Below, piece by piece: positions 1,531 through 46,000 of a stretch of DNA of 64,000 nt (position 1 is its first letter; each line of letters opens with the position of its first letter). Source of the DNA: a virus (taxonomy: Duplodnaviria > Heunggongvirae > Uroviricota > Caudoviricetes). The notes beneath the pieces are model-generated. The model was not told where the DNA came from. It saw only the letters and a list, made by a program, of their open reading frames with translations, and searched no databases. The translations under genes and the position numbers were made by a program. The DNA lies in the IMG/VR virus record IMGVR_UViG_3300013902_000267. The stretch is one strand, 5' to 3'.

Positions 1531-1710
1531 ATGAAAAAATATTTAGAGATTCATTTGAAATATGAATTACCAGAAGATTATGATATTGATATTATAAATG
1601 ATGGTATTGATAATAAAGAAACATGGTCTTATATATTAGATTTAATGACAGATAATGAAAATAGAGAAAGTAAGGATACATGTAAATATACAACAGTTAA
1701 GATATACTAA
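1531..1710 (+). CDS. small hypothetical protein (59 aa)
   Basis: ATG..TAA frame read by hand (MKKYLEIHLKYELPEDYD...). It fills the gap between neighbouring genes and is below the track cutoff. Confidence 0.35.
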   Translation: MKKYLEIHLKYELPEDYDIDIINDGIDNKETWSYILDLMTDNENRESKDTCKYTTVKIY

Positions 1711-1712
1711 AT

Positions 1713-2396
1713 ATGAAACATTACGATTCAATAGATAATATAAAATATAATACTGAATTAGTAGGAGAACAAGTATGGGCATTCAATAAATTAGATGGTC
1801 AGAATTTTTGTGCTAAATATTCTGTAAAGAAAAAGGAATTTACAAATTTTGGTTCAAGAAAATGTATGGTAGATGAGACATCAGAACAATTTGGTGATGC
1901 TGTACGTTATTTTAAATCACATAATTATTCATCTATATTAAGTAATATAGTTGAAAAACATAGAGTAAAGAAAGATATATTTTGTGGTGTTGATGAAATT
2001 ACATTTTTCTTCGAATGGTATGGAGAACATAGTTTTGCAGGATTTCATTCTGAAGAAGATAAAGATAATATGCATCTTGCATTAATTGATGTGTTCATCA
2101 AAAAGAAGGGATATATTGAACCAAAGATATATATGGATCTATTTAGAGATTGTGGAATAGAATTGCCGCAATTAGTTTATACGGGACCATTATCAAATGA
2201 TTTTATTAAAGATATTCAAGAAAATGACTGGACTGAACCAAATTGTAAATTTCCTTATGTAAAGGAAGGTGTTGTAATAAGGAGATCTACTATTTTAAAA
2301 GGACAACGAATGCCTAAAGTAAAAGTTAAAACAAAATGGTGGTTAACTGAATTACATAAAAGATATACAGAAGAAGAATGTAAATTATTAGAGTAA
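1713..2396 (+). CDS. ATP-dependent RNA ligase-like nucleotidyltransferase
   Basis: Ligase motifs in order: NKLDGQN (KxDG), FFFEWYGEHS, KEGVVIRR, PKVKVKTKWW. Confidence 0.65.
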   Translation: MKHYDSIDNIKYNTELVGEQVWAFNKLDGQNFCAKYSVKKKEFTNFGSRKCMVDETSEQFGDAVRYFKSHNYSSILSNIVEKHRVKKDIFCGVDEITFFFEWYGEHSFAGFHSEEDKDNMHLALIDVFIKKKGYIEPKIYMDLFRDCGIELPQLVYTGPLSNDFIKDIQENDWTEPNCKFPYVKEGVVIRRSTILKGQRMPKVKVKTKWWLTELHKRYTEEECKLLE

Positions 2397-2398
2397 TT

Positions 2399-2851
2399 AT
2401 GACAACAGGTGAATTAGACGAAATTGTAAAAGATATTATTAATATTTTTGGTAAACATATAAAGCTTGCAAGTTTATCAGAAAAATCATATGCAACAGGA
2501 CATGAAAATTATTATGATATAGTGTTTGAGAATACTACATCATTTACTTCACGAATGTTCGGTTATCAATATAGAAAGTTCCTTAATAATCTTGCAAGTT
2601 TAACTAATGGTGAAACAAGAAAAACAAATTCATATAAAGGATTTGTATATTATTGGTTTCCTGGATTTATTTACAAGAAAAATAATTTAAGAATTGAATT
2701 TGGAAGGAAAGGTTGGAATAGACATAGTGGTGATGATTCAACTACATGTTTTTATATGACGACTAATAACAAATATATTATTGAAGAAATTGTTAATAAT
2801 ATATTAAGAGATAGAGATATACGTATTTTAAAGAAGAATGATTATGAATAA
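2399..2851 (+). CDS. hypothetical protein
   Basis: Track ORF of 150 aa, translationally coupled to its neighbours. Confidence 0.5.
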   Translation: MTTGELDEIVKDIINIFGKHIKLASLSEKSYATGHENYYDIVFENTTSFTSRMFGYQYRKFLNNLASLTNGETRKTNSYKGFVYYWFPGFIYKKNNLRIEFGRKGWNRHSGDDSTTCFYMTTNNKYIIEEIVNNILRDRDIRILKKNDYE

Positions 2852-3491
2852 TAAACCAACATTAGTTGTTCCAAAAGGCAGACTATATAAAGGAATTAAA
2901 CATATGTTTAATTTATGTAATATTGATATGCCTGATGAGAATACTAGACAATATTATTTCCCTGATTGGAGTGATGATTGTGCATTATTTATAGCAAAAC
3001 CTAAAGCAATACCAGAATTAATTGCAAGTAAATTCTGTGAATTCAGTATGTGCGGATATGATATTATAAAGAATAGTGAATATGAAAATGATATAGAGCT
3101 CATTAAACACACAGGACTAAATAGAGTAAAAGTATGTTTAGCTTCACGATATAATATTGATGAATTGTGTCATATGAATAAACCAGTTATTTGTGCCACA
3201 GAATTTGATGTGTTAGCAAATCATTATTTTACAAAATTAGGAATTCCACATTATATATTAAATACAGCAGGTTCAACAGAAGGATATATTGATATTGGTG
3301 CAGATTGTATTATTGATGTTGTAGAAACAGGGAAAACACTTAAAGAAAATAATATTAATATATTAGATACACTGATTGATACTGATACATGTATATTTGA
3401 ACATGCATCATTAATGGATGCAATGTTACCATCAAATATACAAATAATTTATGATCAATGGATTAATAAGACATGGGAAACGAGAATGTAA
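2838..3491 (+). CDS. hisG: ATP phosphoribosyltransferase (HisG short form)-like
   Basis: N-terminal LVVPKGRL and C-terminal IDIGADCIIDVVETGKTLKENNI match HisG signature regions; length 217 aa. Confidence 0.6.
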   Translation: MIMNNKPTLVVPKGRLYKGIKHMFNLCNIDMPDENTRQYYFPDWSDDCALFIAKPKAIPELIASKFCEFSMCGYDIIKNSEYENDIELIKHTGLNRVKVCLASRYNIDELCHMNKPVICATEFDVLANHYFTKLGIPHYILNTAGSTEGYIDIGADCIIDVVETGKTLKENNINILDTLIDTDTCIFEHASLMDAMLPSNIQIIYDQWINKTWETRM

Positions 3492-3934
3492 AATATATAG
3501 TAGAATTTGATGGTAATGATGGCACAGGAAAAACTTATACGATAAAAGTATTATCAAAAGTTTTTTCTAACTGTATTTTTATAGATAGAGGATTATTCAG
3601 TAAAGCAACATTGCTATCAGACGAAAATGATGAAATGTATAAGTATATTGATGATAATATTGATATGAATAGAATTTATATTATATTGGATGATTATCCA
3701 GAACATTGTCAAATGCTTATAAAAAGAAGAGGAGATTCTATTGAAGAGAAATATCATACAATAGAAGATTTAGAGTATTATCGTAAACAATTTACAAACT
3801 TATATGGTTATTGTTGTAAAAAGAATTATGATAATGTTTATTTAGTTACACGATTATTACCAGATCATGTTCAGGTAATGATTGATATTATTAAGAAATT
3901 TACTAATTTTAATAAGGAAAATAATAATGAGTAA
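3473..3934 (+). CDS. P-loop nucleotide kinase (dNMP/thymidylate kinase-like)
   Basis: VEFDGNDGTGKTY resembles the ExxDGxGKsT P-loop of dTMP kinase-type enzymes. Confidence 0.5.
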   Translation: MGNENVKYIVEFDGNDGTGKTYTIKVLSKVFSNCIFIDRGLFSKATLLSDENDEMYKYIDDNIDMNRIYIILDDYPEHCQMLIKRRGDSIEEKYHTIEDLEYYRKQFTNLYGYCCKKNYDNVYLVTRLLPDHVQVMIDIIKKFTNFNKENNNE

Positions 3935-4577
3935 AATAATTATTGGTACCAGTAATCCAGGTAAGATTAGAGAAATTGCATCTATTCTTTCACCATTAGG
4001 ATATGAGATTGAACCGCATGCATTGGATGTTGATGAAACAGGAAAGACTATTAAAGATAATGCTATTATAAAAGCAAAAGCATATAGTAATGTATTTCCA
4101 GATACTTATGTTATTGCAGAAGATAGTGGATTAGTCGTTCCTAAATTGAATAATCTTCCTGGTCCGTATTCAGCAAGATTTCATGAAATTACAATAGATG
4201 ATAATTTGAATGTTATAAATGTTCCACATGAAGAATTTACTACGGATAAATCTGAACATGATAAACTTAATAATGAGAAGTTGTTGAAGTATATTAAAGA
4301 TATTCCGTTTGATGAGCGTGCAGCATATTTTGAAGTATGTTTTGTCATTGCAAAGAATGGAATTATTCAAGAAACATTTAGTGGTTATTCATATGGTTAT
4401 ATAGCAGATGAATTACGTGGAACAAATGGATTTGGTTATGATCCATTGTTTATTGGTGAGAATACATTTGGTAAGACATATGCAGAACTAGATTCTGCAA
4501 GAAAGAATTTAAAGAGTCACAGAAAGCAAGCATTGAAACAATTGGGCCTTTGGGTTTCACAGAATATAGAGAATTAA
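3927..4577 (+). CDS. rdgB: dITP/XTP pyrophosphatase (RdgB/HAM1 family)
   Basis: IIIGTSNPGKIREI, EDSGLVVPKLNNLPGPYSAR and GFGYDPLF motifs. Start placed at the internal ATG (MSKIIIG) of track ORF 3882-4577. Confidence 0.75.
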   Translation: MSKIIIGTSNPGKIREIASILSPLGYEIEPHALDVDETGKTIKDNAIIKAKAYSNVFPDTYVIAEDSGLVVPKLNNLPGPYSARFHEITIDDNLNVINVPHEEFTTDKSEHDKLNNEKLLKYIKDIPFDERAAYFEVCFVIAKNGIIQETFSGYSYGYIADELRGTNGFGYDPLFIGENTFGKTYAELDSARKNLKSHRKQALKQLGLWVSQNIEN

Positions 4578-4583
4578 TAATAT

Positions 4584-5075
4584 ATGAAGAAATTTATTTT
4601 TCCAGGTTCATTTGATCCTTTTACAAATGGGCATAAAGCAATAGTAGATCAGACATATAAATTGTGTGATGAATTTATTATAGCATTAGCGACAAACTTA
4701 AAGAAAGGAGAAGGACTTATTAAACGTCCTGAGCGTATTAAGTTAATTAAAGAGATTTTTAAAGATTATCCGAATGTAAAGGTAATTGATATGACAGATA
4801 CCTTGATTTCTGATTATTGTAAAAAGAATGGAGTTTCTTATATTGTTAGAGGTATCAGAAATTCGGAAGACTTTACATATGAAAAATCATTGGCAGCTAC
4901 TAACCATTATTTGGCAGGTGTAGAAACAATGTTGGTAATGGGTTTTTGCGAACCATATAATATTGATATTTCATCTACATTCGTTAGAGAATTGGTACAT
5001 TATAAATTACCTATTGGTGAGTTTGTTCCACCAGTTGTTGAACAATATATTAAAGATAATAATTTAACATGGTAA
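4584..5075 (+). CDS. coaD: phosphopantetheine adenylyltransferase (CoaD-like cytidylyltransferase fold)
   Basis: FPGSFDPFTNGH, VRGIRNSEDFTYE and ISSTFVRELV align with PPAT motifs; length 163 aa. Confidence 0.7.
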   Translation: MKKFIFPGSFDPFTNGHKAIVDQTYKLCDEFIIALATNLKKGEGLIKRPERIKLIKEIFKDYPNVKVIDMTDTLISDYCKKNGVSYIVRGIRNSEDFTYEKSLAATNHYLAGVETMLVMGFCEPYNIDISSTFVRELVHYKLPIGEFVPPVVEQYIKDNNLTW

Positions 5076-5938
5076 ATAAGATTCAAGAAGAAGATTTAAA
5101 AGCAGTTGAGTATTGTAAAACTGTATTATATCCTAAATGGAATATCAAAGATTTGTATTCTATAGATTTTGATACATTTAGAAAAATGCCGTTGGTTGTA
5201 GAAGGTGAAAGTAAAGAGATACGTGCATTGGATGATGATTATTGTATCATTTATTTTAAACCTACAATTTATTCATTTACATATAATAGAACTGGTATTG
5301 TAGAAGGAAGTAATATTCCACGTGTTCATGTAAGTAAAGTATTGTGTGAGTTACTTAAAGAAAATGGTATTAAACATGCATATCTAGATTATGGTGATGA
5401 ATTTGTATTAGCACGCATAATTAAAGATACACCTAATATTGAAGTTGTTGTAAAAGCAAATCATACAGGTACAAGTAAACATAGATATTTTGGTATGGGT
5501 AAATCACATGTAAGAATGTCACATCCATATTATTCGGGAATGAAAATTAAAGACATGGAACCATATCCAGCACCTATTGTAAGATTTGATTGGCGAAATC
5601 CATTTTGGGAACCAAATACACATAAGATGTTAGCTGATGAAGTTATGTGCGATGATCAAGCAGATTATTATATTGATGTTAAGAAAGCAAAGAAAACTGC
5701 AGCACTAACATTCAGTGTATTAAGTGATTTTCTTGCAAGTAAAGATATTGTTATTTATGATTTGTGTTTGTTTATATCAGAAGATGGTGAAACAGTATAT
5801 GGAGAAATTTCACCAGATTGTGGAAGATATAGACATTATGATTTAGGAAGTCTTGATAAGGATGTATGGCGTGCAGGAGGTTCATCAGATCAGGTATTGG
5901 AGAAGTGGAATTTACTGTATAAAATGATTACACAATAA
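5069..5938 (+). CDS. SAICAR synthetase (PurC)-like ATP-grasp-type ligase
   Basis: EGESKEIR near the N-terminus and GEISPDCGRYRH resemble the PurC GKxK and (D/E)xxPDxxR motifs; weak, made by eye. Confidence 0.45.
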   Translation: MVNKIQEEDLKAVEYCKTVLYPKWNIKDLYSIDFDTFRKMPLVVEGESKEIRALDDDYCIIYFKPTIYSFTYNRTGIVEGSNIPRVHVSKVLCELLKENGIKHAYLDYGDEFVLARIIKDTPNIEVVVKANHTGTSKHRYFGMGKSHVRMSHPYYSGMKIKDMEPYPAPIVRFDWRNPFWEPNTHKMLADEVMCDDQADYYIDVKKAKKTAALTFSVLSDFLASKDIVIYDLCLFISEDGETVYGEISPDCGRYRHYDLGSLDKDVWRAGGSSDQVLEKWNLLYKMITQ

Positions 5939-20642: not shown

Positions 20643-21344
20643 TTATTTTGATAAAGTACAATTATTAAAGAAAGTACAATATGATATATTAACTATATCA
20701 TTATATATAATTGTATCAACAAGTTCATCATATCTCAAAAGAGATGCTATGAAATTTTTATTATTCTGAAATTTAACACCTGGTTGCAATATCTTCGTTT
20801 CATAATGCATCCATATATTAACATTATTAAACTTATTTTTTAATATATCTATATACTTATGATAATCATCAAATGTATTAAATACACCTTTAAATAATGT
20901 ATCTATTATGTTAATATCATTGAAATCAACACTATTTAATAAATTTAATTCATCTGTATTACATGTTTCATATATTACATTATTATCTTTATCATATGAT
21001 TTTGTATTATATAAAATAAGTTGTATATCCTTTTCAGTTGTATTAATTATTTTTATATTTCTAACTATCAACGGACATGATATAATATATGATATAGGAC
21101 ATAGTATGCAGTTCTTTTTAATATTACTATCAAATATTAATGTAACACCACCATCTGAATATTCTATATCATCTATATTATGAACAATATTAATGTTTAT
21201 ATTATAATCATTCTTTTGTTTCTTTAATTTCAGTATATCATCTTTCCATCTTTTGAATTCTAATTCTCTTTGTTCATTTAGAACCTTTGAACCAACAGAT
21301 TCATTATTTACTATGTTATCAAATTCTTCGTCAAATAAATTCAT
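20643..21344 (-). CDS. hypothetical protein
   Basis: Track ORF of 233 aa. Confidence 0.5.
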   Translation of the reverse strand: MNLFDEEFDNIVNNESVGSKVLNEQRELEFKRWKDDILKLKKQKNDYNININIVHNIDDIEYSDGGVTLIFDSNIKKNCILCPISYIISCPLIVRNIKIINTTEKDIQLILYNTKSYDKDNNVIYETCNTDELNLLNSVDFNDINIIDTLFKGVFNTFDDYHKYIDILKNKFNNVNIWMHYETKILQPGVKFQNNKNFIASLLRYDELVDTIIYNDIVNISYCTFFNNCTLSK

Positions 21345-21433
21345 ACCTTTTTAAAATTAATCAATAATTATATAGAAAAATGATGAAAAAGTTATATATT
21401 TTCTTAAAAATATTGATATTTTAACAATAAAAA

Positions 21434-21463
21434 ATGATTCCAGTAGAAGTATACTGGAATCAT
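21434..21463 (-). terminator. rho-independent terminator downstream of nrdD
   Basis: ATGATTCCAGTA / TACTGGAATCAT perfect 12-bp hairpin, followed by a T run on the minus strand. Confidence 0.6.
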
Positions 21464-21489
21464 TAAAATATTAAAATAAAATAGTTAAA

Positions 21490-21579
21490 TTAAATATTTT
21501 CTTTTGGTAAATAAACACGTGTCTTTTGTTCTTTCTGACGTCCATCAGACCAATTCGAAATTTTAGTTAAATCACAATA
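21490..21579 (-). CDS. nrdD: anaerobic ribonucleotide reductase NrdD, exon 6 (C-terminus after the glycyl-radical Gly)
   Basis: Minus-strand frame reads (Y)CDLTKISNWSDGRQKEQKTRVYLPKENI-TAA, completing RIIG|Y from exon 5. The 5' boundary is approximate. Confidence 0.6.
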   Translation of the reverse strand, partial: YCDLTKISNWSDGRQKEQKTRVYLPKENI

Positions 21580-21817
21580 TACCCGAACTTTCATTCTATT
21601 TTAAAGGGGTTAGACTATACCACTAACTTCTTGAGTTACATCTTGGTAGTCGTTGAGGGCTTTTATTTGTTTCGTATCAAATAACTATCCCTGCTGATTA
21701 TCCATTGTTATATCATTAGAATTTTTACACTTTGGTATCTAATGCTTTAGGAACTTCCAGCATATTCGATGTTTGCTATATATGTCACCATATATAGGGG
21801 CATTTAATTAAAAATTT
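21580..21817 (-). ncRNA. group-I-like intron 5 (ORF-less)
   Basis: About 238 nt interrupt the RIIG/Y glycyl-radical motif. Contains ACTACCAAG ... GGTATAGTCTAA, like the P7 region of T4-type group I introns. The exact splice sites are ambiguous. Confidence 0.5.
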
Positions 21818-22156
21818 ACCCGATTATTCTGTCATATAAACTTACATGAACTGATCCACACTTTGGACATACACTAAATGGTGTCTTTGAAATATATCCA
21901 CAATCTTCACATTTACAATTAGGAACATTAAATGTCCAATATTGACAACCATTCTCTGCCGCAAATTTCATAATGTGAACAATCTGTTTCTTAGACAAGT
22001 GCTCTGACAAATTGAGATGCGCTGCTGAACCACCATCCAAAAAATCTCCAATATAGTTCTTACCATGTAAGGTAATCTTATCAAAGATTGACAATGTTTT
22101 ATCATTTGGTTTGAATATGTAAGACGCATACAGGTTAGTGTCTGTTGGTACCCAAT
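21818..22156 (-). CDS. nrdD: NrdD exon 5
   Basis: (Y)WVPTDTNLYASYIFKPNDKTLSIFDKITLHG...LDGGSAAHLNL...CEDCGY...CPKCGS...YDRIIG; track ORF 21816-22094 extended upstream. Confidence 0.75.
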
Positions 22157-22191
22157 CAACTCTGTTACATGATTACATAATAATTTTAATA

Positions 22192-22479
22192 TTATTGTTG
22201 AATGTAATCTGATTTATTAATATATTCATTTAGATTTATTAAACCTGCATGAATTTTCCTATGACAATTTGAACATACACATACACATTTTTTTATTTCT
22301 TCATATAGTTTTTCTTTACCTCTCCCTCGATGTTTACCTATTGTAAAATCTTTTTCATTTGGATCTATATGATGAAAATCTATACAACATGGTTCATATT
22401 CACTACATATTATACATGGATTCTTTAATGAATATAACCATTCTGTTTTTCTTTTTTGTGAACGCTTATTTTTGTTCAT
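22192..22479 (-). CDS. HNH homing endonuclease (intron 4)
   Basis: CIICSEYEPCCIDFHHIDP...CSNCHRKIH HNH/zinc motif; track ORF of 95 aa. Confidence 0.7.
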   Translation of the reverse strand: MNKNKRSQKRKTEWLYSLKNPCIICSEYEPCCIDFHHIDPNEKDFTIGKHRGRGKEKLYEEIKKCVCVCSNCHRKIHAGLINLNEYINKSDYIQQ

Positions 22480-22612
22480 TATGTATTTCAGGATGTGCTT
22501 TTCTCATCTATTTCCTATATAATTTTCTACATTCTTTACATACTGCACGTCCTTTTTCAAACATTTCTATAGACAATTCTTTACCACATTTATTACATAT
22601 TTTTGTTGTCAT
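22466..22612 (-). CDS. Cys4 zinc-ribbon ORF, probable detached N-terminus of the intron-4 HNH endonuclease
   Basis: MTTKICNKCGKELSIEMFEKGRAVCKECRKLYRK-TAG-MRKAHPEIHNEQK. Overlaps the HNH ORF start in another frame at an A-run. Confidence 0.4.
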
Positions 22613-22911
22613 ATATATTAAATTATGTTTTATTATTTATCACCGGAACATGACAAAAATAACATAACCCAATTATATTAATAAACGCTTAATTATTTCT
22701 AATCAAGTCTCTATGTTACCATAGAGTTCGGACTATTGCATAGTTTTGTTTCACAACAAAACTCCTTTTTATTTAGTCTCTCAGGCTGCCCATAACATTG
22801 TTGTTATTGCTTGCCCCTCGTTATCCTTACTACCGGTACCTAAGGTAATAAAATGTAAGGAACTTCGAGTCAATTAAAAAAGGTTTTACATGGACATTGT
22901 TATTGTTGTCT

Positions 22912-23395
22912 ATCCATCTTCAGAATCCCAATTATAATTCTTTATTGCCAAACTTTCAGCTGGTATACATTCAGTATTGAACGTTAACTTATGACCGTTA
23001 AATGTACCTGCAGCTTCTTGATTCTTTTGCTTTATATATCCAAATATTGTTTGACAAAGTTTTTCATAATGAGGATTTACATTACAAGTAATTCCTAAGA
23101 ATTCTGCCATTTGATTAAGACCATTCAAACCAATTGTTAAATATTGCTTATTCAAATTAATAAACCCTGCTTTATATACAGGTAATAATCCTGCGTCATA
23201 CATATCCCAAAGAAGTTCATTATATGCTGTATGATATTTATATACTCTATCAAGAATATTACCAAAATATTCGCACATATCATCATAATGCTCTTCTACA
23301 TTTTCTTTTGTTACTCCAGATTTCTTAACACTGTTAAACCAGTCTTGAGTTATGCGACTAAGATTCAGGGTTATCACACTTTTACTTCCTGTTTG
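22912..23395 (-). CDS. nrdD: NrdD exon 4
   Basis: QTGSKSVITLNLSRI ... AESLAIKNYNWDSEDG; track ORF 22910-23377 extended upstream. The 5' boundary is approximate. Confidence 0.75.
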
Positions 23396-24623
23396 ACGTT
23401 TTCTCCATATATTTCTATATGGTCCGGGTCATATCTTATGTTTATTTAAATAATAAACATTGCACTATTTCGGCATTTAAAACGATTCGTTTCCTAAAAC
23501 GTTACTACGTATCAATAGTAGTCCTACTCCACCTGCTCATCACTTAGGGGATGACCTCCACACACATTAATAATTTTTATATGTTCTACCTATTAACATA
23601 TTCCTAAAATTATTCATTAAATAATTTTTATATTTACCGATTTTTAATTCTTCAATAGATTTGCCATTATTATATTGTTCTCTTAAATAAACAACTTCAT
23701 CTTTAGATAACAATGGTAACTTCTATTTACATTTATCAGTTCTAATAGGCATTTTTACATGCATATATGATTTTCCAAATAATATTTTATTAAATCCACT
23801 CCATGAATATAAATTACTATATTCTTTAAAAATATCATCTTCTTTTTCACCATTTACAAAATATCTTATTCTTATGTTTAATACTTCTTCATCAGATAAA
23901 TTCTTAGAATTTGCATGCATATTTCCTCTACGTGTTCTTCGATCTGATTTATAAAAATCATTTACTTTATCTGTATTATATTCTATACCAATTTCAGGTC
24001 TTGTATAATAATGCCAATATTTTGAAAATCCACTTTTTGACATTCTATCTTTATACATTTCATATACTTCTCCAAAAGTATATTTCATAGAATAACGTAT
24101 TTTTCTTAATTCTAATAATTCATTATCATTTAATATTGCTTTGGGATGCTCCTCCCCAACTTTTATTATAGTTGCAGAATGTCCACCCAATGTAGAATTA
24201 TATCCATTATTATAACTATCATATAATTTAATGTAATATATTTCTTTATTATCAGCTTCATCCTAATTAGGAACATTATCTTCTAATATTGAAAAATTTG
24301 ATTCATTAATATTATATTTTCTCATTGCTCTATATAATTTATAATCACTATGTTTCATATCATTTAAATGTTCTCTTACTCTTATATGATAATGATGTGT
24401 CTACCCAATATATACTTTTCCATTAGGAAATGATATTTTATAAATTGTAAATATTTTATTCATATATTATAAATGTAAAATTATAACATATTTATATTAA
24501 CTTGGCTCGGTATTACCATGCATATAGTTTCACAACTTATGTTTAGGCTTCACCGATGCATTAATATCGCTATATTAATACATTGCTTGATTAGCAATTA
24601 AGCACATAAAGGACCCAAGTTGA
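23396..24623 (-). mobile_element. group-I-like intron 3 with GIY-YIG endonuclease ORF
   Basis: Separates GNLG(I) from QTGSKSV. Structured flanks include GCCGAAATAGTGCAATG. Boundaries are good to about 10 nt. Confidence 0.6.
23567..24463 (-). CDS. GIY-YIG homing endonuclease (3 in-frame TAG)
   Basis: IYKISFPNGKVYIG-TAG-THHYHIRVREH...YNNGYNST; in frame with track ORF 23723-24190; ends TAA. Confidence 0.75.
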
Positions 24624-25408
24624 TCCCTAAATTTCCATTTGTGAAGTTGAATTCCTTTGTTTGTATCTTATTCTTAAGTCTGCAGTTATGTGTTATATTT
24701 CCATTAGGCATTAAGAAATATGGTTCAAGATTCTTATCGCAGAGTTCTACACAATAATAATCTTTTGGTTCATCAAGATTTACAACTTCAACCTTTGTAA
24801 TTTTTCTTATAACAATGTCTTGATCTACATCTTTAAAATCATTTCTAAACATACCCATATATTGTCCATACTCAAAGATAAGTTGATCTCCTGTTTGAAG
24901 CAAATATGCTTGCTTATCTTTAATCATCTTATCATCATCAATAATAGGGAATATATGATCCGGTGTAACTCTCATTACATTTCGTGATTCATCCGGATTA
25001 AAATCGTCTGGAGCGAAATAAATTCTTACTTCTTGAACTGCTTCTGCTTTTACAAACTTAGCATTTACCCATTCACCTGTACATTTACCTGTTGTACCAT
25101 TAAAATTCATATGATATACATTAATAATTTCATCCTTATGCTTTTCATATGCATTTTTAAATGACTCAACCATATATGCGTTTGAACCTGCGTTTTCTTC
25201 CATATTACAAGGTTCTACATACATGAATGGAGTATCACCATCGAAACAACAACTTGATAATGAATCAACTGTATCTGACATATATGTAAAGAATGAATGA
25301 CCTCTTGCATATTCATCCGCCACAAAATCTGCAGATTCCTTATCAAGGAATTCTCCATCCTTATATACTAATGCGAAACTTTCCCATTTATATTCTATAT
25401 AGTTCGTT
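24624..25408 (-). CDS. nrdD: NrdD exon 3 (includes the intein)
   Basis: ...FALVYKDGEFLDKESADFVADEYARGHSFFTYMSDTVDSLSSC [intein] CRLKNKIQTKEFNFTNGNLG; track ORF 24598-25425. Confidence 0.75.
24685..25248 (-). mobile_element. mini-intein (188 aa Hint domain, no endonuclease domain)
   Basis: Starts CFDGDTPFMYV, has block B VTPDH, and ends YYCVEL..PYFLMPNGNITHN followed by +1 Cys. Excision restores SLSSC-CRLKN. Confidence 0.75.
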
Positions 25409-26203
25409 ACACTATATACGTTCATAATAATGAACTGCTTTATGTTACCATAAAGATTAGACTATATCACAATCCTATAAATATAGGATTCTCCCCATTT
25501 CCACTCACTTGAGTGTACTTCCTTTCGGAATAGTCGTTGAACCTTATTATATAAATGAATATTTATGACCATAATATAATCTATTTGCATTTATCGATTT
25601 TACTAATCCTGATATACATGCAGTTCCTCCAATATTTTTAATAACTTCGGACATTGATGAATATATTATATTATTATCTAAACATTTTATTTTCTTTGGA
25701 AACGTTTTTCCCTTCATCGTATTACCAAATGTTTTAATAGAATATAATTCATTCTCTGATTGTGTGCACCATTCTAAATTATCTACTCTATTATCTGATC
25801 TATTACCATTTAAATGATTTACAAATGGTTTATTTTCAGGATTTGGTATAAATTCTTGAGCAACAAGTCTATGACATAAATATCTAGTTTTAATAGAATT
25901 TTGCATTAATGATATTCTTAAATAACCATCTAATGTATATTCTACTTTTAATGGTTTACCTTTATACGGACGTAATCCACCCCATCTACAAGGCACCATT
26001 CTATCTTTACTTCTGAAATTACCTAAATTACTAACTTCAAATGCGCCATCATATCCTGTTATACTTTTCCAAATTTCTTCCATAATATTCTCTTATATAA
26101 TCTTGGTTGCTGATTATCTAATAACTTCGCATATTTATTAGAGTTCCCAGCAGTTAAAGGAGTTTTTCAATAATAAATTACTTTATTATGCCGCAGATTG
26201 ATT
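25409..26203 (-). mobile_element. group-I-like intron 2 with HNH endonuclease ORF
   Basis: Interrupts TFPV / TNYIEY. Core GTGATATAGTCTAA and CGACTATTCCGAAAGGAAGT elements. Boundaries are approximate. Confidence 0.6.
25547..26083 (-). CDS. HNH homing endonuclease (I-HmuI-like, NUMOD4 + HNH)
   Basis: YDGAFEVSNLGNFRS and VNHLNGNRSDNRVDNLEWCT motifs; track ORF of 178 aa. Confidence 0.8.
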   Translation of the reverse strand: MEEIWKSITGYDGAFEVSNLGNFRSKDRMVPCRWGGLRPYKGKPLKVEYTLDGYLRISLMQNSIKTRYLCHRLVAQEFIPNPENKPFVNHLNGNRSDNRVDNLEWCTQSENELYSIKTFGNTMKGKTFPKKIKCLDNNIIYSSMSEVIKNIGGTACISGLVKSINANRLYYGHKYSFI

Positions 26204-26442
26204 TACGGGGAAGGTGATTATCGTACGAAGACGTTCCTTATTAAACCATATCATGAAGTCTTTCTGTAACCATGAAACACTTTCCCAACATGGTCTTGTT
26301 CCTTCTTCATCAGGAAATACAAATTCACCAAACATACCTTCAAAGAACGGTTTATCAAAATAAGAGAAATTTACAACATTTTTTCTTCTACATAAATCGT
26401 TACTTTATGTACGTTACTATTTGTAACTGCTCTATGATTTCC
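26204..26442 (-). CDS. nrdD: NrdD exon 2
   Basis: Minus frame reads NHRAVTNSNVHKVTIYVEEKNVVNFSYFDKPFFEGMFGEFVFPDEEGTRPCWESVSWLQKDFMIWFNKERLRTIITFPV. Antisense to track ORF 26272-26454. Confidence 0.6.
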
Positions 26443-27797
26443 ATAGACGATTAACGAATTTCACGTTAAAAGGGTTTGTTTAAACCGTTTAGACTATATC
26501 ACCAAATTTAATTTTCTTAAATTTGCACCTACACTTCCATAACACTTGTTATGTACTCTACTAACTCATTTAAAGTTTTCGATAGTCGTTGAACTTTTAT
26601 CCTTGTAGGATAATTAGCTGCGTATGATTACCCAATCTTTATCGTTTTTACAATCTGATAGCCGTTATACTATCTGCTACTATCTATGTTACCATGATAT
26701 GCTGTAGATAAAGCTCTAAGGGACTTCCCGCAATTCAAGGTGTTTATTAACGTCAGCACATGTAATTTCTCTTATAATTTAATTATTACCAAAATTATGT
26801 ATTTTATACATGTGACAATTTTTACAATATGTTATAAGATTATCTATGTTATTAAGTTCTTTATTTTTTATCGCTAAATTAAATAATTCATCAAAATTAT
26901 CAGTAGGATTTAATTCTGGATGTTCTGATAATAAATTATGAAATAATATTTTAAATGGAACTATATGATGAACTTGAAGATTTTCATGACAACCGCATAG
27001 CTAACAAGTATTATGATCTCTCTCTATAACTTCTGGAACTAATCGATTAAAATATGTTCTTATTTTATTACCTAATCTTGTAGTATCTGTTGTATATGGA
27101 ATATTAGTAATATTTAAACTATTTAATACTCTATTAATTACAGCTATTGTACAATTATATCTCCGTGCCAATTCTGTTTTTGATATTGACTATTCAATAT
27201 ATAAATTATATAATTTTTTATAATCATTAAAATCTTCTGGTATTTCTTTTTTATGATAATTCCACATAGATTCTGCAAAAGTACGTCTTTTAATCCCATT
27301 ATGTTTTAAATGACTTCTTATAGTAGTTGCTGAACAGTTAAATATTTTACCTATTTCTACTGTAGATTTACCATCATTATATAATTTTATTATTTCCTAA
27401 TCATTTGTATCATCATATTGTTCATAAACTTCATAATTAGTATTTTTTATATTATATTTTTTAAAATATCTATTAATAGTACCTTTATGACATTTATATA
27501 TTTCTGAAATTTCTTTCATTGTTAAACCATTATTAACATAATTTATTAAATCTTCTTTTTTAATTATTAATTTAGATTTTTCAATATTCCATTTTCTTAA
27601 ATATTCTTTAATATTTGCTAATGTTGTATTTCCTTCTTTAGCACACTATTTTCGTGTTAAACCTTTAATAACATAATTTTCATATAACCAATCTCTATCT
27701 TTTGTAAAATATCTATAATTAGACATAATTTCAGATATGTAAAATTACATACAGGATTATGTAATTTTTAATTTATTTTAGTTTATGCTGACTATAA
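26443..27797 (-). mobile_element. group-I-like intron 1 with HNH endonuclease ORF
   Basis: Separates INQPAASRG from NHRAVTN. Core GGTGATATAGTCTAAACGG and CAACGACTATCGAAAAC elements. Boundaries are approximate. Confidence 0.6.
26779..27726 (-). CDS. HNH homing endonuclease with repeated HTH modules (4 in-frame TAG)
   Basis: 948 nt from ATG to TAA when TAG is read through. RDHNTC-TAG-LCGCHENLQVHHIVPF ... YCKNCHMYKIH, plus three NUMOD-like HTH repeats. Confidence 0.75.
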
Positions 27798-28901
27798 TCC
27801 TCTGGAGGCCGCAGGTTGGTTAATTGAATACACGACCTATTGAAAGAATTGTTGAATACATGAACCAATAGTTCTTGTACCATCACCTATCTTAATAGGA
27901 TTCGTAAAATCTTTTATTGAACCTTCAACATCATATTGTGATAATTCTTTCTCATATGCTTCAAGTTCTTCATCTGTTAACTCTCTTTCTGAATTATAAA
28001 CAAGTTCATCACGAAGTTTGTTTAATTCGTCTGAACCAAAATCATGTTTTCTCAATGTATCTACATCTTTACACCAATAATTAGATTCATTAAGAAGTTT
28101 CCTATATTTAGGCCCAATCTTATAAAATTCTTTACTATGCAAATGATAATCTTCACCAAACTCTTTTCTTGCAAAATAATCAAAATAAACAAGAAATTCC
28201 GATGTTGCAACTGCACCTGCAAATTGAGCAGCAACTGCAAATACAAGATTTACATACATACCACAATAAGAATCAAGATTTTGTGGATGACATGAAAGAC
28301 CTCCTATTTTTTCTAAACCATTATGAAGGAATGGATACATAGTTATACTTGTGCAATACGGACTTATGGCACCAGCGAAGCTAGACTCATCGTTCTTATA
28401 TATAATATGGTTTTTTAAATCTTTTTGATATTGTTTTGCTTTAAAATTTGGATATAGTTCTTTAAGTTTCCTTGTAATCATACCTCTGCTTACAAGAATA
28501 TTATCAGCTTTATGAATTTCAGCATTTAATACACCGATATTCTTAGAAGAAACATTAGAATTATCATCTACAGTACTATTTGCAGTATTAGATGCATTCT
28601 TATATCTTTCAATAAATGCTTCCTTATTAGCAACCCATTCTCTAATTTCCTTTTTCTTGTTACGATAAAGAATAAATTCTTTCGCAACTTTAGGATAATC
28701 ATGAGAATACAAACTTGTTTCAATTTGATCCTGTATTTCCTCTACAGGAATACCATCATATGGTGTTATTGAGTTTGCAATATTAGCTATAGTATCTTTA
28801 GTATACTTAGTTTTCGTAGACTTAAACGCCTCACGAATCGCTCGTTTAACTGTCTAAACACTATAGTTCTCAAAACTACCATCACGTTTCGTTACCTTCA
28901 T
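27798..28901 (-). CDS. nrdD: NrdD exon 1 (ATP-cone plus N-terminal core; in-frame TAGs at 28854-28856 and 27837-27839)
   Basis: MKVTKRDGSFENYSV-TAG-TVKRAIREAF (ATP-cone) is in frame with track ORF 27837-28712. Continues through TAG 27837 to VVYSINQPAASRG. Confidence 0.8.
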
Positions 28902-28992
28902 ACTTAGTTTTCTTTCTATTTTATTTTTGGTAAAATATTTATTCTCGACTATGAGAATTTTTCAAAATATTATTTTATATATTATATAAAAA

Positions 28993-29030
28993 AATGCAAA
29001 TGAAGTCTTATAACAAACATCATTTGCATT
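28993..29030 (-). terminator. rho-independent terminator
   Basis: AATGCAAATGA / TCATTTGCATT perfect 11-bp hairpin, followed by a T run on the minus strand. Confidence 0.5.
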
Positions 29031-29038
29031 AAAATATT

Positions 29039-29758
29039 TTAATTATTTTTAAAAATTTTTTCTTTCCAATAATTAAAGTCAATATCTTTGATTTGATATT
29101 GAATTAAATTTCCAGTTAATACATCAGAAAGTTTTACAGGTTTATAATCATTTCCATCAACACCAACATCATATGTCATTGCTTTTTCTTTTAATTTCTT
29201 AGCAATATTTGCATCTGTACCTGTATATGTTTCAACATTCTTTGGTGTATGCAGATGTCCATGTATATTGAACTTTCCTAAAAATTGACCATCACAATGT
29301 GGATAATGTGAAACTGTAAATTGAAGAATTATTTTATCTTTATAATCGTCATATATTTGTACAATAAGTTCTGTACTCCAATATACTTTACTATTCTCAT
29401 TATATGGCATCATATTCCTTCTTTGCAATACATTCTTTACATCATGATTTCCAATAATATTATAAATCTTTTCAGCATTAATATTATTAACCATTTCATC
29501 ATATGTACTTACATTACTAAATATAAAATCACCACAATTTATAAGTATTGGATTAACGCATTCAGATAAAGTTTCATTAAGATTATCAAATAAAACTTTA
29601 TTCATTTCTTGTACATCTTTAAATGGTCGATTACAATATTTTATTATATTTGCATGATTTGCATGTATATCACTAGTAAAAAATATTCTATTTATATCAG
29701 ATACTTTAAACTTTAATATATGCGGCCCCATTACTACTGTTTTCTTTTCTTGCTTCAT
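29039..29758 (-). CDS. calcineurin-like metallophosphoesterase
   Basis: FFTSDIHANH, CGDFIF, IIGNHD and IHGHLH motifs. Confidence 0.7.
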   Translation of the reverse strand: MKQEKKTVVMGPHILKFKVSDINRIFFTSDIHANHANIIKYCNRPFKDVQEMNKVLFDNLNETLSECVNPILINCGDFIFSNVSTYDEMVNNINAEKIYNIIGNHDVKNVLQRRNMMPYNENSKVYWSTELIVQIYDDYKDKIILQFTVSHYPHCDGQFLGKFNIHGHLHTPKNVETYTGTDANIAKKLKEKAMTYDVGVDGNDYKPVKLSDVLTGNLIQYQIKDIDFNYWKEKIFKNN

Positions 29759-43657: not shown

Positions 43658-43930
43658 TTAATATTTAGAAAACTGTTCATTCAGAACAGATAATTCTTTT
43701 TCTTTCTTAAAAATTAGCTTATCTAGGAAATCATCCATCATTCTCATTTCATCTTGATTTAGAATAATGTCAATATATGGTTTTCCATAATGATATGTTT
43801 GATAATCACTTTTCATTATCCATTCAATATCATGCAACTTTTTTAATTCTTTACATGCGGATATAATACCTTTAGTCTTTAATATTCTTTCATGTAAAGA
43901 ATTAATTTTTTTTAAAGTATCTTCATTCAT
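43658..43930 (-). CDS. hypothetical protein
   Basis: Track ORF of 90 aa. Confidence 0.5.
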   Translation of the reverse strand: MNEDTLKKINSLHERILKTKGIISACKELKKLHDIEWIMKSDYQTYHYGKPYIDIILNQDEMRMMDDFLDKLIFKKEKELSVLNEQFSKY

Positions 43931-44491: not shown

Positions 44492-46000
44492 TTACATAGA
44501 AAATAAATCTTGTGCTTGTATTTGTGTTTCAGTTAATCCTAATTGCGGAGTACTCATAGAATCAGATGCACCGGGACGAATACCAACAGATGAAGAATAA
44601 TTATTTGAATTATTATGTTGGTAATTATTATCTCCTTTATGCTTATCTTTTACTAATCCATCCAATGAAACATTCTCAGGAATAATATTTTCCTCAAGAT
44701 TCTCTTCAATTCTTAAATATGTAGGATTAAAATCAAATTTCTTCTTATCTCCCATGTGTCCAGAATTACGTATTGCTACTGCTTTCAAATAATATGTATT
44801 ATCTACACGCATTAAAGATGACTGAATAATACCGAACAAACTATCAACAGTTGCGATAAGACCTCCAGATTCTGAAACGTTACTCATACCAATATCAGTA
44901 GAATCATATGCAGTTCTATTTGTCTGTGTTAATGATACAACACACCAATTATTTCTCTGAGCCATCGCACGAACATCCTCGCAGATAGATTTAATCTTTA
45001 AATATGTACTTTCAGAATTTGGATTCTTTGCGTCTTTCATAATATTAACATAATCAATGAAAATGTTCTTAAACTTAAATGGTTTATCTTCTGTAGATAA
45101 CTCTTCTTCTTGCTTAAGTAAGAATGACTCAATATCATAAACAGTTGCAGATGATGTAGGGAACTCTTCTATAATAAACTTACCTGGATTAATAAGTGAA
45201 TTCATATAAAATTCCTTCATTTTCTGCATCATAAGATTTGTGTCTGATGCATACTTATCATATTCTTCAATTGGAATATTAAAAAGATTTGAACCTATAC
45301 GTTGTGCTACAAGCTGATAAGCCATCTCCAATGTAATATATGCAGAATTCTCACCATTTCTTACAGAATTCGCACATAGGTTACAAAGCCACATAGATTT
45401 ACCAACTTTAGGTGACCCCATAAATACATTAAGAGTCTTATTTGCCCATCCGCCTTTCAAACATTGATCAACAAAATTATAACCTGTTTTCCTTGTTTCA
45501 AGTTCAGTTTGTTTATGATTAATTGGGTCAAAGAAATCATGTCCTTTAGAATTATTTAATGTAAAATTAGTTTCACTCTGAAATAATGATTTTATATGTT
45601 GTACAATTTCTGCACAATTTTCAAATGTAACTTCAGATTCTGTTGTCTTTACATATTCAATAACTCTTCGGAGACCTGTCATTAAATTCTACCATTCGCC
45701 AAATGCTACTGTATTCTGTTCCAACCATTCATCTGTATATTGACTAACCATATCACGAGTTTGCCATAATGTATGAATTTGATCTTCTGTTACTTTATCA
45801 TCTTTAGCTGCTAATCTAATAAGATCTATTGTTTGTTGCTCAGTTGGTTCTGCTCTAAAATCTAATATATGCGGTTTAACCACATCAAATATAATTTTTA
45901 ATGCAGGATTAGTAAAATATCTTCCTTTAAAAGACTATACAAGATTTAAATTCTTAATTATATAAAAGAATATGACGTTTTCAAGATACGTATTATTCAT
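44492..46000 (-). CDS. DnaB/gp41-like replicative helicase (2 in-frame TAG)
   Basis: Track ORFs 45689-45883 and 44492-45682 are co-framed and joined by TAG 45689-45691, extended to ATG 46000. Walker A GSPKVGKS and a RecA-like core (LTQTNR). Confidence 0.75.

Follow-up and report, generated by a model that had tools for sequence, protein, structure and literature searches.

A candidate mini-intein in the SCCR motif of NrdD, encoded by an intron-interrupted gene of a Lak megaphage

The stretch of DNA analysed here, referred to throughout as the window, comprises 64,000 nucleotides (nt) of the IMG/VR virus record IMGVR_UViG_3300013902_000267 and carries on its minus strand nrdD, the gene for an anaerobic, glycyl-radical ribonucleotide reductase (RNR). 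A 188-codon insert (24685..25248) divides the SCCR motif of the encoded protein, and can with high confidence be regarded as a canonical mini-intein with an N-terminal cysteine, as in class 1, belonging to the insertion-site family of the NrdD intein of phage c-st. Judged from its sequence and those of its relatives, the insert is real and almost certainly functional, and would be removed from the enzyme by protein splicing. The case is carried by a fold search and by comparative data, not by profile score. Over the 7.5-kb region around the intein, identity is 100% with Prevotella phage Lak-B7 (MK250026.1) and 99.2-99.9% with the remaining eight Lak-B genomes, of which Lak-B3, B5 and B6 cover just 90% of the region because one intron of nrdD (intron 4, described below) is absent there. 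Lak-A and Lak-C genomes align with about half of the region, at 86-90% identity.

The open reading frame (ORF) through the insert reads DSLSSC|CFDGDTPFMYV...RVTPDH...DYYCVELCDKNLEPYFLMPNGNITHN|CRLKN, with bars at the predicted splice junctions. The coordinates given for the insert in the original prediction, which was made from the letters of the sequence, are exact: it extends from Cys1 (25248-25246) to Asn188 (24687-24685), and corresponds to residues 476-663 of a 985-amino acid (aa) NrdD precursor. Like all of the features of nrdD described here, the blocks expected of an intein lie on the minus strand. Cys1, the putative N-terminal nucleophile (25246..25248), opens block A (CFDGDTPFMYV, 25216-25248); block B (RVTPDHIF, 24949..24972) provides Thr95 (B:7), His98 (B:10) and Phe100 (B:12); block F (DYYCVEL, 24742..24762) has Cys166 at position F:4 (24751-24753); and block G (NGNITHN, 24685..24705) includes Thr186 at G:5 (24691-24693), the penultimate His187 and the terminal Asn188. 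The +1 Cys, the first residue of the C-extein (24682..24684), is the second cysteine of the NrdD SCCR motif. A short linker (residues 127-142, 24823..24870) occupies the position of the LAGLIDADG domain in full-length relatives, and neither a LAGLIDADG nor an HNH domain in the insert is matched by Pfam at E <= 1. The splice blocks also align locally with reference inteins. The ORF within which the insert was originally noted (24598-25425) does exist and contains the strings quoted from it, but it exceeds the true exon (25384-24623) at both ends, as its leading MNVYSVTNYIEYKW and trailing INLGPLCA are intron sequence, and it is to be read from the minus strand.

Excision of the insert in silico gives SLSSCCRLKN, as had been proposed, and the same string is found unbroken, between the same flanks, in NrdD proteins 70-75% identical to that of Lak. 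These were retrieved with the spliced, intein-free C-terminal 425 aa of Lak NrdD as the query, a search with thousands of NrdD hits, among which the best without an interruption have this level of identity over 99-100% of the query. In homologues P0016, P0017, P0024, P0040 and P0047 the region reads FFTY(I/M)SD(T/S)VDSLSSCCRLKNK(V/I)Q(T/S)KEFNFTNGN, with the two cysteines adjacent and no insert, and the motif is also uninterrupted in the NrdD of the crAss-like phage cr116_1. Close homologues being uninterrupted at the site, the segment is not one that intein-less NrdDs also carry. A homologous insert at the identical point is present in P0001-P0012, P0014 and P0029, and it is intact in all 15 Lak genomes, which represent three clades. 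The predicted junction peptide is ...TVDSLSSCCR in the spliced protein, as against ...SLSSCCFDGDTPFMYVEPCNMEENAGSNAYMVESFK in the unspliced one.

The residues expected to act in splicing are strongly conserved. Thr95, His98, Cys166, Thr186, His187 and Asn188 are invariant in relatives that are just 45-52% identical to the Lak-B7 intein. Across 12 aligned sequences, V94, T95, P96, D97, H98 and F100 of block B do not vary, with R93 and I99 nearly so, and the same is true of Y165-C166 in block F and of N182, G183, I185, T186, H187 and N188 in block G. Both Cys1 and the +1 Cys are cysteine in every homologue that covers those positions, and Cys1 is also found in the inteins of c-st and of the gut phage MT835492. 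Comparison of the Lak-B7 intein with that of Lak-A2 or C1 gives a synonymous divergence (dS) of ~0.77 and a non-synonymous divergence (dN) of ~0.115, a dN/dS ratio of 0.15; the ratio for the adjacent extein is ~0.08, calculated from 45 codons only. Purifying selection is acting on the intein.

The structure predicted for the insert is that of an intein. An AlphaFold2 model based on the 12 aligned sequences has a predicted local distance difference test (pLDDT) score of 87.7 and a predicted template modelling (TM) score of 0.82; residues 131-140, within the linker, have a mean pLDDT of 65, and the model otherwise consists of the HINT core only. When the model was compared with the PDB using Foldseek, a fold search being needed because the sequence is too diverged for a search of PDB sequences, the best 45 matches were all inteins or other HINT domains. 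The top match was the Pyrococcus horikoshii RadA mini-intein (E = 7e-10, TM 0.64-0.74), and PolII, TFIIB, CDC21, VMA, DnaB and DnaE inteins followed. The archaeal mini-inteins of Pyrococcus RadA (4E2T), PolII (2LCJ) and TFIIB (5O9I), which are the best structural matches, resemble the Lak insert in having the HINT fold, in size and in carrying no endonuclease, but are only 13-17% identical to it and reside in unrelated host proteins at unrelated insertion sites. The NCBIfam model PRK14714, which describes PolII-DP2, aligns over the full length of the insert through its positions 932-1101, of 1350 in total (E = 8e-6), a section that we take to be the intein part of the profile. Between the HINT fold, the junction residues, the homologues with an empty site and the lack of an endonuclease match, the original description of the insert as a mini-intein stands.

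The +1 Cys of the intein aligns with Cys290, the thiyl-radical cysteine of phage T4 NrdD. The insertion point separates the two cysteines of the SCCR motif, and its placement in this conserved motif, SCCR(L), is borne out by an alignment with the sequence of the Thermotoga maritima NrdD structure that extends through ...DSIDAVASCC-R331. In the Thermotoga enzyme, 328-SCCR-331 corresponds to 288-MGCR-291 of T4 NrdD, and the substitutions C329A and C330A both abolish activity, with the caveat that the motif sits away from the catalytic site in the Thermotoga crystal (PMC4493059). Given this correspondence and the inactivity of the cysteine mutants, the intein is situated between two essential cysteines, with the equivalent of the radical cysteine serving as its +1 nucleophile. 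Before splicing, the precursor is accordingly expected to lack catalytic activity, in which case selection for NrdD would keep splicing active.

The same site is occupied by longer inteins in other phages. Searching phage genomes with tblastn identified a 353-aa intein in the gut phage MT835492.1 (locus L007, 3061-4119), with the same junctions (SSC|CFSKDT...LITHN|CRLQN), in which LAGLIDADG_3 reaches the Pfam threshold; over the C-terminal 33 residues, this intein shares 55% identity with that of Lak (E = 2e-7). Used as a query in turn, the MT835492.1 intein leads to the NrdD of phage c-st (CST076), with 48% identity over 99% of the query, as well as to phage D-1873 and Desulfovibrio phage 7757. 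P0144 likewise carries an intein at the SCCR site, and shares with Lak and MT835492.1 the flanks SSC|C...ITHN|CRL. The c-st protein reads ...ALASC|CFDGQQ...(LAGLIDADG)...VYCFEMKNIEEPYFTLPNGIITHN|CRLTS, with an intein of 330 aa; the putative nrdD intein of this Clostridium botulinum phage is already in the literature (PMC3653736).

A comparison with known RNR inteins, which the original prediction had recommended, therefore places the Lak insert at the insertion site of the c-st NrdD intein. The two elements (and that of D-1873) reside at the same point of a Thermotoga-type NrdD, with the junctions ASC|CFDG...ITHN|CRL in c-st, and have in common Cys1, the THN terminus, the +1 Cys, an unusual cysteine at F:4 and recognisably homologous C-terminal blocks. 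They differ in that the c-st intein is full-length, at 330 aa with a LAGLIDADG domain, whereas that of Lak has 188 aa and no endonuclease; in that their N-terminal splicing halves are strongly diverged, this half of the Lak intein being weakly similar to those of the full-length inteins at the site; and in that the c-st nrdD annotation shows no introns, as against five in Lak. By its sequence, the Lak element is a mini-sized member of a known insertion-site family, and its descent is most likely to have been by reduction in size from a LAGLIDADG intein resembling the ones in c-st and MT835492.1. As it lacks an endonuclease domain, independent homing by the Lak intein is not expected; the simplest history is one of fixation prior to the divergence of Lak clades A, B and C, with vertical inheritance of the intein now. 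The Lak-type intein family is itself small: a phmmer search of the whole library with the intein found 14 clusters only, and no new host protein could be securely identified among them. This single NrdD site, beside the equivalent of the radical cysteine, serves as an intein insertion point in phages whose hosts are Clostridia, Desulfovibrio and Bacteroidota, and the Lak and full-length elements form a matched pair for the study of intein reduction.

The gene into which the intein is inserted consists of six exons and five introns, with TAG as a glutamine codon. NRDD-domain fragments are detected by Pfam on five separate minus-strand ORFs, and the intron boundaries were set from intron-less alleles, by comparing the window with Lak-B3, Lak-A1, Lak-A2 and Lak-C1 (loci L001-L004); each of the five insertions in the Lak-B7 nrdD is precisely missing from at least one other Lak genome. 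The exons join into a single reading frame, given TAG as Gln, that specifies the 985-aa precursor, or 797 aa once the 188 residues are subtracted. Compared with bacterial NrdD, the product of the joined exons shows 70-75% identity over 99-100% of the query, and it retains both the glycyl-radical and the Zn-ribbon motif.

Exon 1 (27785..28901) begins with ATG at 28901, encodes an ATP-cone and the start of the NRDD domain, and contains TAG in frame at residues 16, 355 and 370. It is followed by exon 2 (26205..26376) and by exon 3 (24623..25384), which holds the intein and the ends of which are fixed by intron-less alleles. The N-extein part of exon 3 (25249..25384; ESFALVYKDGEF...DSLSSC) starts where the intron-less Lak-A1, A2 and C1 alleles indicate, and the C-extein part (24623..24684; CRLKNKIQTKEFNFTNGNLGI...) ends where that of Lak-C1 does, leaving only 198 nt of extein sequence (136 + 62 nt) in this exon. 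Exon 4 (22912..23396) precedes exon 5 (21818..22156), which ends at the glycyl-radical Gly (..DRIIG), and exon 6 (21490..21572) encodes YLTKISNWSDGRQKEQKTRVYLPKENI before a TAA stop. The recoding of TAG is directly visible in alignments: the TAG codon of Lak-B7 in SRGL(TAG)SAF (27788-27790) aligns with a CAA codon of Lak-A1 (SRGLQSAF), and the Q in the GIY-YIG motif 'YIGQT' of the intron 3 ORF is written as TAG (24401-24403). ORF calling with translation table 11 fragments exon 1 and the homing endonuclease genes, and so splits nrdD into many pieces. Exon 1 also encodes an acidic stretch of ~70 extra residues (~27870-28140; residues ~255-345; ..KDVDTLRKHDFGSDELNKLRDELVYNSERELTDEELEAYEKELSQYDVEG..), probably helical and without intein features, that is not found in the bacterial NrdDs of 70-75% identity.

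All but one of the introns contain an ORF for a homing endonuclease-like protein, with HNH types in introns 1, 2 and 4 and a GIY-YIG type in intron 3. Intron 1 (26377..27784, 1408 nt), missing in Lak-A1, has P, R and S core elements and an ORF combining helix-turn-helix and HNH domains (27726-26779) with four in-frame TAG codons. Intron 2 (25385..26204, 820 nt), upstream of the intein exon, is of group I type and missing in Lak-A1, A2 and C1; its ORF (25547-26083) encodes NUMOD4 and HNH_3. Intron 3 (23397..24622, 1226 nt), downstream of the intein exon, is precisely missing in Lak-C1 and contains a 298-aa GIY-YIG-type ORF (24463-23567) with three in-frame TAG codons. Intron 4 (22157..22911, 755 nt), missing in Lak-B3, B5 and B6, has a small HNH-like ORF (22192-22479), and intron 5 (21573..21817, 245 nt), which has R and S elements and no ORF, is missing in Lak-A2 and C1. 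The comparative data thus bear out, as well supported, the original view that the exon containing the intein is flanked by introns, one missing from three of the Lak genomes named above and the other from Lak-C1, in a gene that has five introns in total.

A T (U in the transcript) at the end of the upstream exon and a G at the end of the intron are hallmarks of group I splice sites, and for all five introns the preceding exon ends in T and the intron in G. Introns 1, 2 and 5 contain R (..CAACGACTA..) and then S (..ATATAGTC..) core elements, in the correct order, and across the whole window matches to these motifs occur on the minus strand only. In intron 4, GAGACTAAAT and CAATAGTCC resemble R and S elements by eye, and a stricter pattern search gave no match; no R or S element was found in intron 3 by pattern search. 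Intron 3 is instead identified as an intron because it is precisely missing from Lak-C1, has T...G boundaries and contains an endonuclease ORF. It was also considered as a group II intron, and this was rejected, as it has neither a GUGYG start nor an AY end. RNA splicing of nrdD can be inferred from the comparative boundaries, the T...G rule and the core motifs of introns 1, 2 and 5.

Further group I core motif matches occur on the minus strand elsewhere in the window, R-like (CAACGACTA-like) near 43882 and 36379 and S-like (ATATAGTC) near 45940, 44286 and 2888, and other genes of the window may perhaps be interrupted by group I introns as well. The 3' core of intron 2 (25428-25555) has counterparts, 81-85% identical over 115-128 nt, in phages of Staphylococcus (Twortvirinae), Bacillus and Enterococcus; that of Staphylococcus phage CF5 adjoins a sequence annotated as 'intron encoded nuclease'. 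Records of Vibrio, Alteromonas and Rhizobium phages were also among the hits of this megablast search. For phages of a Bacteroidota host, this intron core is very widely shared. Intron 5 is placed between the glycyl-radical Gly and the following Tyr (..DRIIG|YLTK..), such that the gene seems to stop at the radical glycine if the intron is overlooked. The NrdD ORF of gut phage MT835492.1 likewise stops at DRIIG*, and the same site may be occupied there. The contig from which P0016 derives (L010; Logan SRR21150940_1343, 1587-5299), a phage-like sequence of 96 kb with mostly unannotated genes, has an nrdD with 75% identity to that of Lak; this gene is split once, at the equivalent of the intron 1 site, and a 188-aa ORF lies in between. 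The intein and the remaining Lak introns are absent from it, showing that the set of insertions varies among related NrdD genes.

The gene structure would require both RNA and protein splicing for an intact NrdD to be made, and a sequence of events can be proposed. The nrdD transcript would first lose its five group I-type introns, and translation of the joined mRNA, with TAG read as Gln, would give the 985-aa precursor. Following folding of the HINT domain, an N-S acyl shift at Cys1, aided by Thr95 and His98 of block B, would be succeeded by transthioesterification onto the +1 Cys, then by succinimide formation at Asn188, aided by His187, and finally by an S-N shift. This should yield a 797-aa NrdD in which SSCCRLKN is restored, together with a free 188-aa intein. 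The correct product of this gene is accordingly recovered from the DNA only if code 15 is used and the five introns and the intein are all excised. The intein might also have been carried along by co-conversion during homing of the flanking introns, since only 136 + 62 nt of extein separate it from two endonuclease-bearing introns; this is speculation, and the intein is more widely fixed among Lak genomes than either of these introns.

Combinations of introns and inteins in phage RNR genes have been described before. The nrdE gene of SPbeta, of B. subtilis, has an intron and an intein, and that of Brochothrix phage A9 has three introns and an intein (PMC3653736); the nrdD of Jug-phage is fragmented by group I introns, its inserts encoding endonucleases or Intein_splicing proteins (PMC12880540). 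As in Lak, these genes combine RNA and protein splicing, with homing endonuclease ORFs in the introns. The Lak gene differs in belonging to a 550-kb megaphage with recoding of TAG to Gln, and in combining five introns with a mini-intein that has 198 nt of extein around it. No reports of inteins in Lak phages were found in the literature searched, and the GenBank Lak records in the collection searched have no annotation; the exon, intron and intein model worked out here could be transferred to other Lak genomes. The insertion site and the intron-plus-intein architecture both have clear precedents, and no current concept is altered; rather, the known clustering of self-splicing elements in RNR genes now extends to the largest gut phages. 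If active, a compact 188-aa mini-intein with Cys1 and a +1 Cys, from a mesophilic gut phage, would also be a candidate tool for protein engineering.

A number of observations weigh against this interpretation of the insert and its flanking introns. The search with an intein splicing-domain profile that the original prediction suggested did produce a match to Pfam Intein_splicing (PF14890; E = 6e-6), but its 26.5 bits fall below the gathering score of 35.8; none of the TIGR models of intein N- and C-termini matched the insert at E <= 10, and a phmmer search of PDB sequences gave only noise, with no intein. No intein-less allele is present among the 15 Lak genomes, such that the boundaries of the excision rest on more distant homologues. 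Position F:4 is occupied by Cys166 and not by the Asp usual in class 1, and the catalytic details may depart from the textbook. As for RNA splicing, only introns 2 and 5 match Rfam, both below threshold. A narrow search with RF00028, which has a gathering score of 50, gave 29.3 bits (E = 2e-5) for intron 2 plus 14.7 bits for its P4-P6 part, and a local search gave 24 bits (E = 2.6e-4) for intron 5. Intron 3 has no group I match in Rfam, and no group I intron was reported when Rfam was applied to the whole window, or to 21000-29500 at E <= 1.

The substitution at F:4 raises the question of how splicing would proceed. The class 1 features Cys1, block B T95-P-D-H98, His187-Asn188 and the +1 Cys are all present in the Lak intein. 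In standard inteins F:4 is usually Asp (PMC2807308), and in class 3 inteins, where the N-terminal nucleophile is absent, a cysteine at F:4 is the obligate nucleophile, found together with Trp at B:12 and Thr at G:5 (PMC2807308; PMC7664689). The corresponding Lak triplet, Phe100, Cys166 and Thr186, retains two of the three WCT residues. Class 3 inteins such as those of mycobacteriophage Bethlehem DnaB and AceL NrdHF thus resemble that of Lak in Cys F:4, Thr G:5 and their phage context, but they have Trp at B:12 and no N-terminal nucleophile; with Cys1 present and the B:12 Trp absent, membership of class 3 was rejected for the Lak intein. Cys at F:4 and Thr at G:5 are common to the Lak, c-st and MT835492 inteins, in which B:12 is Phe in Lak and Asn in the other two, whereas F:4 is Gly and G:5 is not Thr in the stand-alone relatives P0135 and P0138-P0140, which are more distant. 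The inteins of the SCCR site could on this basis be natural hybrids of classes 1 and 3, with Cys166 active or the family an evolutionary intermediate, although this is considered unlikely. In the former case, Cys166 would either be a second acceptor of the thioester or form a disulfide with the cluster of Cys-1, Cys1 and Cys+1; redox state would then gate splicing, and hence the activation of an oxygen-sensitive radical enzyme. The conversion of class 1 to class 3 has been argued to be an improbable evolutionary event (PMC7664689), an argument on which a natural hybrid would bear.

A related proposal is that splicing takes a route other than that of plain class 1, either through an alternative or additional thioester intermediate involving Cys166, His98 and Thr186 (the Cys-His-Thr triad of class 3), or with disulfides between Cys166 and Cys-1, Cys1 or Cys+1 limiting splicing to reducing (anoxic) conditions. 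The invariance of the F:4 and G:5 residues among the three same-site inteins, the nucleophilic role of the former in class 3, and the clustering of four cysteines that would result at the active site of an oxygen-sensitive enzyme can be cited in its favour; yet the presence of Cys1 and of the class 1 Thr and His of block B, together with the replacement of the B:12 Trp, make it distinctly improbable, and ordinary class 1 chemistry with a tolerated substitution at F:4 is the simplest reading. It is also very unlikely that the insert is a decayed remnant, incapable of splicing, within a dispensable nrdD pseudogene. Such decay might be suspected from a gene that is interrupted six times, from the loss of the intein endonuclease and the sub-threshold Pfam score, and from two metagenomic contigs, one with a breakpoint inside the intein (P0013/L005) and another with a frameshifted copy (P0007). 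It is difficult to reconcile with the invariance of all splice residues, with dN/dS ratios of 0.15 in the intein and ~0.08 in the adjacent extein, with six exons that join in one frame to give a protein 70-75% identical to bacterial NrdD with its glycyl-radical and Zn-ribbon motifs preserved, or with the retention of the arrangement in 15 Lak genomes of three clades. That the 188 residues are instead a lineage-specific structural insertion, remaining in the mature enzyme, is scarcely credible: RNR families do have insertions of this kind, and the extra ~70 aa in exon 1 of Lak NrdD could be an example, but this segment splits a motif of which neither cysteine is dispensable in the Thermotoga enzyme, combines the HINT fold with the full set of intein junction residues, and lies at a site that LAGLIDADG inteins occupy in other phages.

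Some more distant or incomplete relatives of the mini-intein were also recovered. P0135, P0138, P0139 and P0140 are stand-alone ORFs of ~200-210 aa that are homologous to the Lak intein over its full length, with 37-42% identity. Their termini are short and unlike NrdD, and three of them end in HD or RG, not HN; these could be intein-like autoprocessing domains found elsewhere, or fragments produced by gene calling. The contig that encodes P0013 (L005; ENA ERZ27280919 k141_781048, 1-1443) has only the C-terminal half of a Lak-type intein, starting from the equivalent of window position 24904, fused to an unrelated 200-aa N-terminal ORF. The first 1138 nt of this contig are unrelated, and the fragment upstream is presumably like tryptophanyl-tRNA synthetase. 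An ORF or intron nested within the intein was considered for this sequence and rejected, the breakpoint being an assembly chimera or a rearrangement. Together with the frameshifted intein copy P0007, it represents either an assembly chimera or a decayed nrdD allele.

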